The position numbers and the translations under genes are program-made. Below the pieces are notes generated by a model, which was given only the letters and a program-made list of their open reading frames with translations, was not told where the DNA came from and ran no database searches. From assembly GCA_050012755.1 (NCBI GenBank), contig JBEKGO010000045.1, forward strand, positions 1 to 14,578: 14,578 bases of DNA, in the 5' to 3' direction. The DNA is from Candidatus Bathyarchaeia archaeon. GTDB taxonomy: Archaea; Thermoproteota; Bathyarchaeia; Bathyarchaeales; Bathycorpusculaceae. Shown here in pieces: positions 214-6,747 of the stretch (the first letter of the stretch is position 1; each line of letters starts with the position of its first letter).

Positions 214-924
214 TTGTTTGAATTGAGCTTAGACGCTTTTATTGCTTCATTCATTCTGGTCGTTATAGCTGAAATGGGAGACAAAACACAATTTTTAGCC
301 ATGTCCTTCGCGACACGACACAACGTCTACAAAGTACTTCTTGGAATTTTCATAGCGATCGTTGCATGTTTTGCAATAACAGTAGCCGTAGGCCAAATCC
401 TAACAACAATCATACCCATCGACATAATATCGATAGCTGCTTCGCTCTCATTCATCGGCTTCGGACTTTGGGCGATCCGAGGAGACAAACAAAAAACTGA
501 GAACAAAAAACCTTCTCGCTTTGGAATAACCGCAACCGTAGCCATAACATTTTTCGTTGCAGAGTTCGGCGACAAAACCCAGCTTGCAACCATCAGTTTA
601 GTAGCGCAATACCAGAACGCAATAAGCGTTTTTTTAGGAGCTTCCATCGCGATGTTGGTTGCTGATGGCCTTGGGATAATTGTTGGAGTTGTTTTTTGTA
701 AGCGCATTCCAGAGCGAGCTTTCAAATGGCTTTCTGCAGCAATATTTGTTTTATTTGGGTTAATCGGTTTATATGAAGTTCTACCTGCCAAAATCGGCTT
801 AGACTACACGGCATTAGCTCTTGTGGGGTTGACCGTTTTTTCTGTCTCTGCAATGTTAATTCTGGCAAGAAAACAAAAAATGACATATAATTCTGAGAAA
901 AATCATAACTTGCAAAGATCGTAG
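214..924 (+). CDS. TMEM165/GDT1 (UPF0016) family Ca2+/Mn2+ transporter
   Basis: Two copies of the family signature E-x-G-D-K-T-Q (EMGDKTQ, EFGDKTQ) and 6-7 hydrophobic helices. The TTG start is approximate. Confidence 0.93.
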   Translation: MFELSLDAFIASFILVVIAEMGDKTQFLAMSFATRHNVYKVLLGIFIAIVACFAITVAVGQILTTIIPIDIISIAASLSFIGFGLWAIRGDKQKTENKKPSRFGITATVAITFFVAEFGDKTQLATISLVAQYQNAISVFLGASIAMLVADGLGIIVGVVFCKRIPERAFKWLSAAIFVLFGLIGLYEVLPAKIGLDYTALALVGLTVFSVSAMLILARKQKMTYNSEKNHNLQRS

Positions 925-1015
925 CCGCCAAAAACAAATGCTAAGTTTAGAAAAACTAGAAAGAAAACCAAAAAAAAAGTCAAACGCCTCAGCATTTAAA
1001 AAATTTTTAAAAATT

Positions 1016-1124
1016 GAGTTTTGGCAAATGCAGATTTAACCTAACGCAAACTAGAATTTTCGGAAGAGAGAGGGGGAACATGGCGCTTGCGTCTCAGTTA
1101 ACCGTTGATTTGCCAAAACGCTTC
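1016..1124 (-). ncRNA. Putative structured small RNA (long hairpin, C/U-rich terminal loop)
   Basis: Perfect 12-bp inverted repeat 1018-1029/1108-1119, plus inner stems 1036-1041/1096-1101 and 1043-1051/1085-1093. Three A-C mismatches on + become G-U pairs on -. TATATAAA (- strand, 1149-1156) lies upstream, and T-tracts (1009-1013, 998-1003) lie downstream. Confidence 0.55.
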
Positions 1125-1148
1125 GGATTTTTTTAGAACCCTATACGT

Positions 1149-1156
1149 TTTATATA
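1149..1156 (-). promoter_or_regulatory. TATA box for the putative ncRNA
   Basis: TATATAAA on the - strand, about 30 nt upstream of the hairpin 5' end. It also reads TTTATATA on +, so orientation is inferred. Confidence 0.5.
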
Positions 1157-1177
1157 CTAAATACTATACTTCGCAAT

Positions 1178-1206
1178 AAAAATTGATGTGACTGTACTAG
1201 CACAGC
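1178..1206 (-). terminator. Hairpin plus T-tract after the mobA-like gene
   Basis: The - strand reads GCUGUG-CUAG-UACAGU (stem with G-U pairs, 1191-1206) just after the stop at 1213, then TTTTT (1178-1182). Confidence 0.45.
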
Positions 1207-1212
1207 TACAAG

Positions 1213-1902
1213 TTACAACTGTGGTCTTTTAGTTCTTCGAATGGGCATACGGGCAGCTTTCGCAGCGCCTTTTTTTGATGTTGATGTTCTAGGTTTTAAC
1301 ATTACAACGGCTTTCTTTAGATCCAGCGGAGTAATTATTCGGAAAAACGTTTTGAAATCTGGATCCAGCTGCTCAATCACCATCGTTGACATGTAACGAA
1401 TCCCACGCAATCTATCCGCTATAGCTTCCACATCAACCTCGCCATTAGTTAACGCTTCTTTGGCAGCCTCCAAAGCAACCTTAGTATTGTAAACGGCATG
1501 TAAAGGTTCAACCTCACAATCAGGCGATCGTGCAATATCCGCTGATTTGCCCATGCCACAATCAAAAAGCAAAGTCACCACATCTGGGGAAACAAAGGGA
1601 GAATCAAACGGCAAAATCAACGAATATTTTCCCTCGGCCGCTTCAAAACCTGCTAAAGCAGCCCCTAAAAGCCCTTTTGATTCGTCCGCATCACAAACAA
1701 ATCTAACCTTAGGTGAAACAATTTTTGCGTAAGAATCCGCGCGTTCTTTCGAGGTTGTGACAATAATAACTTCTTCAGAAATCCCTTTAACAGCGTCAAT
1801 AACATGTTTCAACAAGGGTTTGTTATCCAGACGCAATAGCCCTTTGTCTTTCCCGAACTTGTTTGAGGAATCAAGTGCTAAGATGATGACTGATTTATCC
1901 AA
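1213..1902 (-). CDS. MobA-like NTP transferase (molybdenum cofactor guanylyltransferase fold) with degenerate nucleotide-binding motifs
   Basis: IILAxxSSxxFGxDKGLL, KPLLKHV, LPxDxPF, EPLHAVY and FFxIxTPxDL follow the MobA layout. Likely start is TTG 1902 behind a GGTGGAG SD; the ORF track uses ATG 1923. Confidence 0.85.
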   Translation of the reverse strand: MDKSVIILALDSSNKFGKDKGLLRLDNKPLLKHVIDAVKGISEEVIIVTTSKERADSYAKIVSPKVRFVCDADESKGLLGAALAGFEAAEGKYSLILPFDSPFVSPDVVTLLFDCGMGKSADIARSPDCEVEPLHAVYNTKVALEAAKEALTNGEVDVEAIADRLRGIRYMSTMVIEQLDPDFKTFFRIITPLDLKKAVVMLKPRTSTSKKGAAKAARMPIRRTKRPQL

Positions 1903-1972
1903 ATAGCTGACGTCTCCACCCATAAATTACAAAACAAGTTAAAAAACATACAGAGAAAGAAAAATGCTTTTT

Positions 1973-2755: not shown

Positions 2756-3139
2756 TCAACCTTGTGTTTCCCTATCAACGAAGAAATACGCTTTTCTTCC
2801 TTTGCGTTCTTTTTTGAGGTAACCCATGATTACAAGCTGATTAAGATACGCGCTTTCAACTGCTCTTGCTCGACTTGTTTGCACAGAGATTTCTTCAGCT
2901 GTTGCTCTCACGCATCTACAGATTGCCATGGCGGTTTTTCGCAAGTGATCAGGCATCGAGAGAAGTGTCATAACATCAAGAGATGCATCAGGCAAGCCAG
3001 GTGCAGACTTTTGATTGTCATTGCCAGTTTTCTGAATTTCAATAATAACTTCCATCTTATCATTTAACCGCTCAAGACTTTCTTCAATCTTTTCAAGAAT
3101 ATTCAGAGGTCTTTTGTTCATCGCTTGATCTTTAATCAT
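2756..3139 (-). CDS. Small DNA-binding protein: N-terminal coiled coil plus C-terminal winged HTH
   Basis: Heptad pattern ILEKIEESLERLNDKMEVII, HTH ATAEEISVQTSRARAVESAYLNQLV, wing GYLKKERKGRKAYF. GAGGG SD upstream; 6 nt from the MinD/ParA start. Confidence 0.85.
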   Translation of the reverse strand: MIKDQAMNKRPLNILEKIEESLERLNDKMEVIIEIQKTGNDNQKSAPGLPDASLDVMTLLSMPDHLRKTAMAICRCVRATAEEISVQTSRARAVESAYLNQLVIMGYLKKERKGRKAYFFVDRETQG

Positions 3140-3301: not shown

Positions 3302-3595
3302 TTAGTAGGGAGCCATTACTTGGCTTCTTGCTTCCTCTGCTATAGGCAAGACTTGTCTTAGCTCTTTGAAGTATTTCAGAACAGTGATACCTCGTTGTGA
3401 AACGGCATAAACAACCCGTCTTTTTCCAACGGTACGTTCTTCAACCAAGCCTTGCTTCATGAGAAAGTCAAGATATTCCTTGAGGACACTGCAGTTGACG
3501 TTAGCTTTGTACATTACATGCGTTAGCTTTAGTGGTCCTCTGTTAGCCAGAACTGAAAGGATATCTACATACATTTCTAGTTTTGAACGACGCAC
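3302..3595 (-). CDS. Winged-helix transcriptional regulator (HTH_45/COG3432-like)
   Basis: RRSKLEMYVDIL...KLTHVMYKANVN...LKEYLDFLMKQGLVEE...Y.VSQRG. Start reassigned to GTG 3595: a GAGGA SD precedes it, and a TATA-like TTTATATT (3635-3642) lies inside the longer ORF call. Confidence 0.88.
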   Translation of the reverse strand: MRRSKLEMYVDILSVLANRGPLKLTHVMYKANVNCSVLKEYLDFLMKQGLVEERTVGKRRVVYAVSQRGITVLKYFKELRQVLPIAEEARSQVMAPY

Positions 3596-3685
3596 TTCTT
3601 TATTCCTCTTGTTTTCTCCACTATTCATGTTTTTAATATAAATCATTTATGTAGTGCAAATCAACTTATTATCCATATGCACATG

Positions 3686-3993: not shown

Positions 3994-4434
3994 ATGGAAA
4001 TTGAGAATCACTGGATCCAGGACTGGCTTAGCTGTAGAGCTGAAGCTTACAAAACCGAATTAGATGAAAACTCGGAAATAGTGACGACAGAAATTCATCG
4101 AGATGAAGGAGAGATCGCTGGAGAAAATATTGTTAAGGCAAATGTTCCAGCGAAAGTTAGTATTATCACTGGCAACGCTTTGAAAGTCATCCCCACTTTG
4201 AAAGGTCCTTTTGATTTCGCATTTATTGACGCTGAGAAAAGTGAGCATTTTCAATATCTTAAATTGGCGGAGAATAAGCTACGTAAGGGAGCAGTTGTTT
4301 TTGGGGATAACGCTGGAATCTTCGCCGACCAAATGCGTGATTATTTGGATTATGTGAGGAATTCGGGCAATTACAAGAGTAGGTACATGCAAGTGGGCGA
4401 CGATGGTGTCGAAATTAGTGTGAAGCAAAGTTAG
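3994..4434 (+). pseudogene. N-terminally truncated class I SAM-dependent O-methyltransferase
   Basis: From ~4057 it reads EIVTTEI...FDFAFIDAEK...L.KGAVVFGDN, typical of cation-dependent O-methyltransferases. SAM-binding motif I (LEIGTxxGYS) is absent, and the first ~21 codons look unrelated. Confidence 0.7.
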
Positions 4435-4734: not shown

Positions 4735-6747
4735 CTAATAGATCACCCTTATGACCCAGGCATTATCTTCATTGAATGCAACTTCATAATGAGGACTTTG
4801 TAGGAACAAATGCGGATCATAGTTGTTTCTCCAATTCTGGACCTGACTACTGACGGTATTGCTTAGATAAATGTATGAGACATTGTATTTCTTGAGGATG
4901 GATAGTGCCTCGGTTGAGTTAGGAGATTCTGCGACGATAATGCTCTCATCTTGTCTAGTAAACATAATATTTGACCATCCAACTTCGGATACGCTTAACA
5001 ATGGCATAACGATGCGTCTGTGGCATATCACGGGTATCCATGTACTTGGTGTTCCAACCCAGTGATCGTTAAAGATTACAGCATCTTGAGGGGTGTTATT
5101 TGAAATCCAAATCATTGCATTGTAGTCCGCTGTAGATATTCGGTTTGTTTGAATTTCAGCGTTGGCAAGAATCGGTTTTGATTCGAAGTAATAGGTAGAT
5201 AAAAGAAGAGATGCGACTATCAGAAGGGGCAAATAAGTTTTCAGGAATTTACGAGAAGAATATCGGAGTTTGTTTTTTAAGAAGTCATAAAGTTTCACAA
5301 ACCCAATTCCACCTAACACTGCTAGAGGAAATGACAACAAAGGACTGAGGAAAGCTCCTGATTGAAGATAGTACCAATCTGGAAAATGGATTTGGAATAT
5401 TTCATTTAACATTAAGAGAACTATACTTAGAAACCATGCTAAAAGAAAGCTTCCTATTCGCCTTCTAACCAAAACAGCAAGCAGACCTATAATTCCAAAA
5501 AGCAATAGCCAGTAGCCGTAATACATAAAGAGGTTTGCAGAGCCAAATTCACTTCTAACTGAATTGGCATTGAACCATATTAGAAGCGCCTGATACTCCT
5601 TTAAAGGTACTTTAATCGTTAACCGGCTGAGAATATTGAAGACCCAAGGTAAAGACAAGCCAACTCCGATGACAGTAATTGTGGCGCCTCCAAAAACGCT
5701 TTTTTTCCTGTTTTCAAAAAAGATCAATCCACAGGAAAAGAATAAGACAACAAAAATGGTAGCCGTGATGAACGAAACACTGTAGGTTATGAACAGGCTT
5801 GCCAATGTTATGCCTGCCAGTAACAGCATTTTACGGTTTCCACTAACTGAATAGAGATATGAAAAAAACAACAGGCACAAGGTTAATGCCACTCCAGCGA
5901 GGGCTGGAAACCGACCGTATGTCATCATTTGATAGAATCCAATTGAGAGTAGAGCTGAGAGAGCTGTTGCACAAAGCGCAATTCTATTGTCATGTGATAC
6001 CCTGCGTGTGAGGACAAATATTTCGCCATGGATTATAGCGAAAAATGCCGAAAAAAGAGATACAAGCAACGGCATGGACACAGAGGGGTCCAGGAGATAG
6101 AGAAAAGCTATCACTGACGGATATCCTGGCGGATAAGTGAATTGGGTTTGCTCAGGAAAATATGGTGCCCAAGACTGGGGGATTTTGCCTTGCTGGGCAA
6201 TCATAGTTGCCGCTAAAGTGGATGTGGCGGGATCATCTCCCATAGGTATTAAAATGCCGTTTTTCGGTAACGGAAGCGATATCAGAGCAATCGAAACAAC
6301 AATAAGGAGCATTAGAACAAAATATGAAAAAGACATTGAAGATGACCTGAAATGCGTTTTCAGTCTTCCTTTTTTCCATGAATATGCAAGTAAAGGAACC
6401 GAGAGTAAAAGCGCAGACAAAATGATTGTATATTCATTTATTGGCACATGTAAAACTGACAAATAAAGAGCCATCAATGACGTATAGGCTATCCCAATTA
6501 TGGGGGACAGAATCAGTTTTTCCAACAAATCAAATTCACGTGAAGTTACCGCCTGCAGAATAGAGAAGCCGGGAAGAAATAAAACGAATAGGACCCTGCC
6601 CGTGAGCGAGAGGGCAGATACACCCCCAACCAAGAATAAAATGAAAGCTAGAAAAAAACCAACAACTACAGTAGCAAACGTCCGAATATTCGGGTGCATT
6701 TCATGTTTCTTTAAGAATATTTCTTTTGTTATTTCTTGCCAAGGCAA
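4735..6747 (-). CDS. Polytopic GT-C-fold membrane glycosyltransferase-like protein
   Basis: Many TM helices; acidic GDDPA motif in an external loop followed by YPPGYP. The C-terminal soluble domain (DYNAMIWISNNTPQDAVIFND...LKKYNVSYIYL) resembles STT3/AglB-type C-termini. The N-terminal LFVLFLPGF module is DUF1616-like. Start uncertain. Confidence 0.75.
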   Translation of the reverse strand: MPWQEITKEIFLKKHEMHPNIRTFATVVVGFFLAFILFLVGGVSALSLTGRVLFVLFLPGFSILQAVTSREFDLLEKLILSPIIGIAYTSLMALYLSVLHVPINEYTIILSALLLSVPLLAYSWKKGRLKTHFRSSSMSFSYFVLMLLIVVSIALISLPLPKNGILIPMGDDPATSTLAATMIAQQGKIPQSWAPYFPEQTQFTYPPGYPSVIAFLYLLDPSVSMPLLVSLFSAFFAIIHGEIFVLTRRVSHDNRIALCATALSALLSIGFYQMMTYGRFPALAGVALTLCLLFFSYLYSVSGNRKMLLLAGITLASLFITYSVSFITATIFVVLFFSCGLIFFENRKKSVFGGATITVIGVGLSLPWVFNILSRLTIKVPLKEYQALLIWFNANSVRSEFGSANLFMYYGYWLLLFGIIGLLAVLVRRRIGSFLLAWFLSIVLLMLNEIFQIHFPDWYYLQSGAFLSPLLSFPLAVLGGIGFVKLYDFLKNKLRYSSRKFLKTYLPLLIVASLLLSTYYFESKPILANAEIQTNRISTADYNAMIWISNNTPQDAVIFNDHWVGTPSTWIPVICHRRIVMPLLSVSEVGWSNIMFTRQDESIIVAESPNSTEALSILKKYNVSYIYLSNTVSSQVQNWRNNYDPHLFLQSPHYEVAFNEDNAWVIRVIY

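Follow-up and report, generated by a model that had tools for sequence, protein, structure and literature searches.

Among the small RNAs (sRNAs) of bacteria, RsaE/RoxS of the Firmicutes carry C-rich unpaired UCCC motifs that target G-rich Shine-Dalgarno regions and are kept across species, and CsrB/RsmZ, encoded by co-regulated RNA genes, titrate CsrA with conserved loop motifs, displaying many GGA loops. In Burkholderia, CU-rich sibling sRNAs are encoded in several copies behind a common upstream motif (PMC5688073). Archaeal counterparts are the intergenic sRNA154 and sRNA41 of Methanosarcina mazei, which are conserved in the genus, mask ribosome-binding sites with complementary (anti-ribosome-binding-site) loops and are tied to the nitrogen regulon (PMC5867862). 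For Bathyarchaeia, including Bathycorpusculum, our literature searches brought up no regulatory RNA in titles or abstracts. Here we analyze the gap between a GDT1-family gene and a MobA-like gene in a 14,578-nucleotide stretch of DNA from a Candidatus Bathyarchaeia archaeon (contig JBEKGO010000045.1; this whole stretch is called the window below). With a probability of roughly 90%, window positions ~1153 to ~1008 of the - strand encode an independently transcribed, structured sRNA of ~145 nt, one of three clear paralogues from a clade-restricted, multi-copy family of hairpins with a CU-rich loop. This CU-loop family is a new clade-specific sRNA family and not a member of any described one. An earlier note, made from the letters of the window, had proposed a novel stand-alone RNA gene on this strand, and covariation, a promoter, T-runs and the lack of any Rfam match uphold that proposal.

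Comparison with the described systems reveals partial likenesses. Similarly to sRNA154 and sRNA41, which are stable stem-loops serving a specific regulon, the CU-loop family is restricted to one clade. It belongs to another phylum and has another sequence and fold, a distinction drawn without direct sequence comparison, and it is multi-copy and linked to CsbD and KGG genes, in contrast to the nitrogen genes of the M. mazei sRNAs. The Burkholderia "toxic small RNA" (RF02278; ncS27 and its siblings) and the Neisseria NmsRs are bacterial RNAs of different sequence with two short hairpins, whereas the CU-loop RNA is archaeal and consists of one long three-segment hairpin and a 5' domain; in addition, a preference for ribosome-binding sites was not demonstrable for it in start-region searches (detailed below). 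The motifs of RsaE/RoxS are 4-6 nt long and repeated within each RNA, whereas the CU-loop RNA exposes a single 13-17-nt tract in a very large loop; unlike CsrB/RsmZ, it carries one or two CU motifs per RNA. With Y RNAs it shares a long stem built from distant segments and a large pyrimidine-rich loop, but its main stem does not join the 5' and 3' ends, and it possesses a separate 5' domain and an internal hairpin. A search for PF05731 (TROVE/Ro60) in the genome that contains the window (2.41 Mb in 65 contigs, 100% complete) returned no match, while Deinococcus and Bacteroides controls were positive. Since the host lacks Ro60, the RNA is not Y-RNA-like, and with neither a Y-RNA hit in Rfam nor a conserved bulged helix the Y-RNA-like scaffold suggested previously is abandoned. 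Contigs of this genome (G000) are given C numbers in what follows; other G numbers denote genomes of relatives and L numbers individual loci.

The gap is bounded by the convergent GDT1-family gene (214..924, + strand; Pfam GDT1, E 1.5e-41) and, upstream of the RNA and co-directional with it, the MobA-like NTP-transferase gene (1213..1923, - strand; Pfam NTP_transf_3, E 6.9e-24). Read directly and folded, the - strand of window positions 1018-1119 contains a three-segment hairpin. Its minimum free energy (MFE) fold comprises stem P1 of 12 bp (1119-1108 GUUUUGGCAAAU with 1029-1018 AUUUGCCAAAAC), stem P2 (UUAACU 1101-1096 with GGUUAA 1041-1036) and stem P3 (1093-1085 GACGCAAGC with 1051-1043 GUUUGCGUU), topped by a 33-nt apical loop (1084-1052) in which the pyrimidine tract UUCCCCCUCUCUCUUCC at 1078-1062 is followed by GAA. 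Three of the hairpin pairs are G-U as read on the - strand. Beyond the hairpin lie two T-runs, U5 at 1013-1009 and U6 at 1003-998, which may act as an archaeal oligo-T terminator; relatives likewise show T-runs 3' of the hairpin. In all these respects (three-segment hairpin in the gap, ~33-nt loop with its pyrimidine stretch, three G-U pairs, T-tracts) direct reading and the - strand fold agree with the earlier note. Its length estimate of ~105 nt needs correction. On the 5' side the main hairpin is preceded by a domain at 1148-1118 with two covarying helices, a closing helix (ACGU 1148-1145 with GCGU 1121-1118) and a hairpin (GGGUU 1141-1137 with AAUCC 1129-1125). Because of these two helices, the RNA must begin upstream of 1148, and we place its length at about 145 nt (~1153 to ~1008).

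Stability exceeding that of shuffled sequences was found on the - strand only, when both strands were folded as the note had advised: the MFE there is -36.5 kcal/mol (z -3.27), a value equaled by 0 of 200 shuffles, whereas 68 of 200 shuffles are as good as the -30.5 kcal/mol (z -0.27) of the + strand. We built two covariance models, R1 from nine orthologues with the structure written by hand from their alignment, and R2 from 53 members. At the window, R1 scores 135.6 bits on the - strand versus 32.9 bits on the + strand, and the match (1008..1158, - strand, family type A) reaches 127.6 bits with R2 (E 2.7e-24). Base pairing in the 53-member, model-fitted alignment extends to 92.6% of 1512 cells, and the covariation that had been suggested as a test is present, with double-sided changes in 27 of the 31 base pairs; 0 of 500 column shuffles reach these values, and sliding the partners by 1-3 columns lowers the pairing to 25-41%. 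Compensatory changes affect 7 of 9 pairs in P1, 6 of 7 in P2 and 6 of 7 in P3. In the 5' domain, helices 1 and 2 change on both sides in all four pairs each and are paired in 92.5% and 90.3% of cells, respectively. Since the 53-member alignment leans towards the model, we recounted the pairing on a sequence-only MAFFT alignment of the nine type A orthologues. It shows 95.3% of cells paired, six pairs changed on both sides and slid controls of 19-41%, and it also supports the 5' domain helices.

The same alignments bear on the question of whether the constraint acts on RNA or on DNA. G-U cells are more frequent than A-C cells (127 versus 44), as expected if the - strand of the window is transcribed; together with the covariation, this supports the constraint at the RNA level claimed in the note. 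A palindrome serving only as DNA (protein site, cruciform or miniature inverted-repeat transposable element, MITE), with no function of the RNA, would account for stems so nearly palindromic that the opposite strand also folds and gives weak covariance-model hits. It is nonetheless highly improbable in view of this G-U excess, of pairing that is kept while the sequence changes, and of the asymmetric conserved loop, the directional promoter and the T-runs.

A long alignment revealed a block upstream of the RNA that is better conserved than the RNA itself (consensus cTTGTTGTAGTG-N-TACAGTCACATCAttaTTTAT). In the window this promoter/operator block occupies 1175..1212 of the - strand and comprises box 1 CTTGTAGCTG, an 8-nt spacer, box 2 CAGTCACAT (1194-1186) and the TATA-like TTTTTAT (1182-1176). 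Boxes 1 and 2 are the halves of an imperfect dyad with the ideal form TTGTGACTG-N8-CAGTCACAA. An automatic motif test was passed upstream of 46 of the 48 family members examined, with one placement wrong, and the distance from the CAGTCACAT box to the model start is 33-39 nt in most members. A position weight matrix (PWM) for which sRNA promoters from other genomes alone were used assigns 42.1 bits to the window block. The distance from TATA box to transcription start in archaea is usually about 26 nt. With the TATA center near 1179, this spacing and the covarying 5' helices from 1148 on, we predict a start on the - strand near 1153 (1150..1156), ~5 nt before the first covarying helix. The RNA's own promoter postulated previously is thereby supported in the conserved block at 1212-1175, but not in the place proposed for it: the putative TATA box TATATAAAA at 1156-1147 (where UAUAUAAAAC is found) is not TATA-like in types B-D, lies only 2-10 nt before the 5' domain and encloses the predicted start. 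A separate terminator ascribed to the MobA-like gene was not recovered either; the interval from the mobA stop (1213) to the RNA has no T-run other than the TTTTT of the conserved TATA-like box. A bacterial-type scan gave two sigma-70-like matches and no terminators, with 0 terminator-like sites in 900-1300, and is uninformative for an archaeal host. An independent promoter and following T-runs, both identified computationally, accompany the RNA in varied contexts, as befits an sRNA.

Known RNA classes do not accommodate the locus. The Rfam scan called for in the note places the RNA outside known families: Rfam 15 gave no match in the whole window at the gathering threshold and only noise over 900-1260 at E<=10 (best 14.6 bits against a threshold of 81), and at E<=1 neither the two paralogue loci nor three loci of related RNAs had any match. 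ARAGORN found no tRNA or tmRNA gene in the window. C/D box RNAs are defined by a C box RUGAUGA near the 5' end, a D box CUGA near the 3' end and a kink-turn (K-turn), and H/ACA RNAs by an ACA ~3 nt from the 3' end, a pseudouridylation pocket and a K-turn or K-loop. The former class was rejected, as UGAUGA is missing and the only CUGA lies within the RNA, between P2 and P3, and the latter because the 3' tail CCAAAACUCAAUUUUU has no ACA and the internal loops have no tandem G-A pairs; no K-turn was seen by eye in the internal loops. These results bear out the prior statement that this is not a tRNA, C/D or H/ACA RNA. A messenger for a small protein is hardly credible. In most type A and B members an AUG precedes the CU tract, opening a 23-codon frame in the window (MFPLSLPKIL..., read by eye), but the tract is not read in the same frame in types A and B, the AUG is missing from types C and D and from L085 and L098 of type A, it has no Shine-Dalgarno sequence ahead of it, and conservation is at the level of nucleotides and pairing, not codons.

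BLAST of the window's own genome identified a second copy on contig C1 with an identical loop and compensatory changes in the inner stem, and R2 detected a third clear copy at C2:127532-127676. We distinguish four types: type A, located after mobA, includes the window copy; type B includes the C1 copy; type C, with the loop UCUCUCUCCUCGCUCUUCCUGAA, is represented by the third copy; and type D is a short form with neither P1 nor the 5' domain. Two weaker CU-loop hairpins in the same genome, at C2:153924-153978 (-) and C16:23301-23434 (+), score 27 and 29 bits with R2. The paralogues are located in unrelated gene contexts. By contrast, inspection of the syntenic region after mobA-like genes in relatives, as the note had recommended, showed a type A RNA just downstream of mobA in 13 of the 32 mobA loci fetched; in most relatives the place of GDT1 is taken by a TFS-like zinc-ribbon gene on the strand of the RNA. 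A MITE or other dispersed repeat was therefore rejected: the genome holds three strong and two weak copies, which differ by compensatory changes, the loop and promoter words occur only at family loci, type A remains syntenic, and neither flanking inverted repeats nor target duplications were seen. As separate observations, the C2:153924-153978 (-) hairpin lies directly after an 89-codon open reading frame (ORF) with a motif promoter (C2:154320), and a similar hairpin occurs in G008, G013, G036 and G134.

Matches with E <1e-5 were obtained by BLAST in twelve further genomes of the genus, and R1 recovered the family in 68 of 120 genus genomes at E<=1e-3, often with several matches per genome. 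Beyond the genus, the sets searched with R2 are samples of the order and the class, so that absence means not found in the genomes searched. In the order sample, matches came from 11 of 35 genomes of family f1 (8 of 11 in genus g1 and 3 of 6 in the sister genus g26) and from none of the 115 genomes of the eleven other families; the class sample contributed 4 of 15 f1 genomes and 0 of 135 outside f1. A contig labeled Candidatus Acidoferrum, a bacterium (L052, DATIXS010000121.1), carries an archaeal mobA (75% identity) with a type A RNA (173.7 bits) and is probably mis-binned.

Within the family the stems evolve fast yet are always base-paired, and the loop harbors the near-invariant tract CCCUCUCUCUUCC-GAA. 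CUCUUCC is present in the loops of 48 of the 53 members and CUCUCUUCC in 42 of 53; the loops are 31-47 nt long, with a mean pyrimidine content of 69%. Counted on either strand, the 12-mer CCTCTCTCTTCC occurs 78 times in 31 of 41 genus genomes, compared to 7 times for the reversed control. We folded 20 further 12-mer sites, picked outside the listed covariance-model hits, and at 17 of them a long hairpin with other stem sequences again exposes the 12-mer unpaired (>=9 of 12 nt) in its apical loop. There are up to 8 CU-loop sites per genome; in types B and D the tract immediately adjoins U-runs, and some members (L202, L206, L216) have a second CU motif in the 3' tail. On sequence grounds, the loop would be the functional module of these RNAs, held constant while the stems drift. 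Tandem CU 12-mers within one locus were noticed at G033:C33:27581-27636 and G008:C23:50213-50266, 44 and 42 nt apart.

The promoter motif is shared with protein-coding genes. In the window's own genome the PWM produces 19 hits above 12 bits, compared to none with the reversed PWM. Three of them are the sRNA copies; others precede KGG-repeat/LEA_5-like, bPH_3, TrmB-family regulator, DUF2769 and flavodoxin-like (Flavodoxin_5) genes, as well as small proteins with no assigned function and more non-coding hairpins. A looser motif pattern adds a CsbD-like gene and a SnoaL-like gene. The full motif was found at 17 of 24 CsbD-like homologues from 14 genus genomes, including our own, a count that is descriptive and not blind because the regular expression was written after the sequences had been seen; box 2 lies at -52 to -55 from the CsbD-like ATG in 16 cases and at -64 in one. 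Only one of 23 CsbD promoters exceeds 12 bits with the PWM, since their TATA differs. The inverted repeat at C2:21673 and in its orthologues is perfect (GTGACTG-N8-CAGTCAC) and suggests that the regulator is dimeric. In bacteria, CsbD and KGG proteins are general-stress proteins, and in relatives the type A RNA is followed by the TFS-like zinc-ribbon gene and then by an Hsp20 gene. Based on the motif shared with CsbD/KGG genes and on Hsp20 near type A, we read the sRNAs as members of a stress-type regulon. That the dyad operator and CAGTCACAT box, common to CsbD-like, KGG, bPH, DUF2769 and TrmB-like genes and the small RNAs, define a stress/dormancy regulon under one dimeric regulator seems somewhat more probable than the opposite. 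The TrmB-family regulator gene at C24:11092 (-), coding for 257 aa, stands behind a 21.3-bit operator/promoter hit; its product is, speculatively, a candidate auto-regulated factor for the motif. The two proteins encoded after type A in G004, named by eye, are a 118-aa TFS/RpoM-like double zinc-ribbon protein (L080:1667-2023) and a 177-aa Hsp20-like protein (L080:2157-2690).

The sRNA would act in trans with the exposed CU tract as its active part, most likely by pairing with purine-rich mRNA stretches (Shine-Dalgarno-like or GA-rich) and altering their translation or stability. By analogy with sRNA154/sRNA41 of M. mazei and the CU-rich sRNAs of Burkholderia and Neisseria, pairing of this kind stays the leading idea. 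We regard a trans-acting sRNA working through the loop in this way as tentative, at or slightly short of even odds, and the whole chain of structured sRNA, stress regulon and pairing loop as evenly balanced.

Several results weigh against this chain or its parts. We scanned one genome whole, with gene starts taken from 2757 crude gene calls. Loop-complementary 9-, 10- and 11-mers occur genome-wide 191, 42 and 13 times, compared to 293, 61 and 20 times for the reversed control (12-mers: 9 versus 4, two of the nine being the RNA genes themselves), and complementary 7-mers precede the start codons of 66 genes, compared to 82 for the control. Duplexes at -14 kcal/mol or lower form with 262 start regions versus 125 internal windows, but 20 shuffled loops pair with start regions as well or better (mean 316), and we rejected start-region pairing as evidence for a specific anti-Shine-Dalgarno design. 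The best 12-nt complementary pairing in a 5' untranslated region (UTR) is not kept in relatives, and the loop does not exactly reproduce the 16S anti-Shine-Dalgarno sequence GAUCACCUCCU (ordinary 16S 3' end). The anti-Shine-Dalgarno seed envisaged at the outset stays a conjecture: the loop is conserved and unpaired, and in the one genome scanned neither a specific preference for gene starts nor an enrichment of complementary words was found. The stress reading, for its part, leans on bacterial annotations of CsbD and KGG, and a very conserved, housekeeping-looking RNA on contig C36 also has a related promoter. Start, end and expression of the RNA are all predicted from the DNA. Finally, in many relatives the TFS-like ORF starts 6-25 nt past the T/A-rich tail of the hairpin, where read-through or a leader function may occur.

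The last point is the chief argument for a cis-acting role, in which the hairpin would be the 5' leader or attenuator of the TFS-like and Hsp20 genes and the window copy a relic of rearrangement. A conserved GAGATGA ahead of the TFS ATG, with the Hsp20 gene following, leaves scant room for a separate promoter, although the T/A tail could double as the TATA box for a TFS transcript that has no leader. In the window, however, GDT1 is convergent and no same-strand gene follows, yet the copy retains its promoter, all helices and the loop (127-136 bits); the TFS paralogue of this genome lies elsewhere (C15:35881-35522) behind its own TATA-like box, and a leader role leaves the intact window copy unexplained. 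Types B, C and D and the 17 further CU-loop hairpins are found in other contexts, and neither the window copy, types B-D nor the others occupy the constant 5' UTR of one gene family, as a riboswitch or leader would. We consider a cis-acting leader very unlikely.

A decoy, sponge or ribonucleoprotein scaffold is a more serious competitor. Its pyrimidine tract and U-run would bind a KH, S1 or Sm-like protein, and under stress the co-regulated copies, like CsrB/RsmZ, would titrate this protein or deliver it. Such a role would suit a 12-13-nt sequence that stays nearly letter-identical on many unrelated stems, at up to the eight sites per genome counted above, sometimes with the second CU motif in the 3' tail, and bordered by U-runs in types B and D; it would also suit complementary RNA sites that are neither enriched nor conserved. 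Most members, however, have one motif per hairpin, in contrast to the many sites of classic sponges, and the seeds of base-pairing sRNAs can be equally invariant. On balance we find this role unlikely and retain pairing of the CU loop with purine-rich mRNA as the preferred mechanism.

Individual partners were also considered and rejected. The paralogous genes for large secreted proteins at C26:12874 (+) and C6:51678 (-), one of ~900 aa, share a conserved promoter and a 5' UTR hairpin, and their 5' UTRs carry the GA-repeat CGGAAGAGAGAG. The UTR is not conserved, as only a 26-34-nt 3' piece of it was found elsewhere, in 4 of 60 genus genomes. The 16S and 23S rRNAs of the relative G003 were dismissed as partners because 3 of 30 and 12 of 30 shuffled loops, respectively, pair with them at least as well; in our own genome, Rfam models found neither 16S nor 23S in the assembly, which retains just the final ~270 nt of a 16S gene at a contig edge (C11:1-270). 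GGAAGA motifs in the co-regulated RNA at C2:21673, considered as an "anti-sRNA", are present in only 2 of 11 aligned orthologues.

A broader scenario, which we rate as less likely still than the decoy, is a clade-specific stress/dormancy switch of which the CU-loop hairpins would form the RNA arm, as something other than ordinary mRNA-pairing sRNAs: the dyad regulator would co-induce CsbD/KGG/LEA-like protectants together with up to 8 loop-display RNA genes, whose tract would capture one partner. The captured partner would be a protein of translation or RNA decay, or purine-rich initiation regions as a class, and its capture would shut down or re-program translation globally. The same promoter type and hairpin scaffold would have been re-used for other loops, for example those of the C36 and C38 RNAs described below.

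Bathyarchaeia are abundant, uncultivated archaea of soils and sediments, and they are now provided with an RNA family that combines strong covariation, a defined promoter and a clade-limited range, along with a candidate regulon whose operator motif is common to CsbD-like, KGG-repeat and other genes and to further RNAs. These findings raise questions about the stress response of these archaea and about whether archaea, as bacteria do, employ sibling sRNAs with a seed in the loop. The covariance model can be used at once for genome annotation and for reading expression from soil and peat RNA data.

Related promoters led to three more RNA candidates. The C36 RNA (C36:3789-4019, - strand; L173/L185; ~170-215 nt; PWM 18.3 bits) shows a P1/P2-like scaffold (GCUUGGCGGGUC...GUUAA) but another loop, and its 5' stretch GCGAGAAAUAGCCAUCCAAGAGGUACACCCAUG is invariant. 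A single copy, with 73-88% identity, is present in 33 of the 41 genus genomes; Rfam gives no hit, and the alifold energy is -54.6 kcal/mol. A two-hairpin candidate at C2:21669-21949 (+) (L174/L217) follows a perfect palindromic operator GTTGTGACTG-N8-CAGTCACATAATTTTAAATTTT; of 41 genus genomes, 23 contain a match, which in 11 covers the greater part of the candidate, and Rfam has no hit for it. The third, a hairpin at C38:10412 (+) (L172), has a 27.4-bit promoter hit, a P1 of UUUGGCGGAUC/GGUCCGCCAAA and a loop, AUACCCCACUUAUCGAA, that is not CU-rich; contig C38 carries four motif promoters within ~9 kb (6526, 10412, 13495, 15700).

Elsewhere in the window, two - strand ORFs of 670 aa (4735-6747) and 127 aa (2756-3139) lack a Pfam match. 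Their neighbors are a ParA/MinD-like ATPase (1973-2749), an HTH_45 regulator (3302-3646) and a truncated-looking O-methyltransferase (3994-4434).

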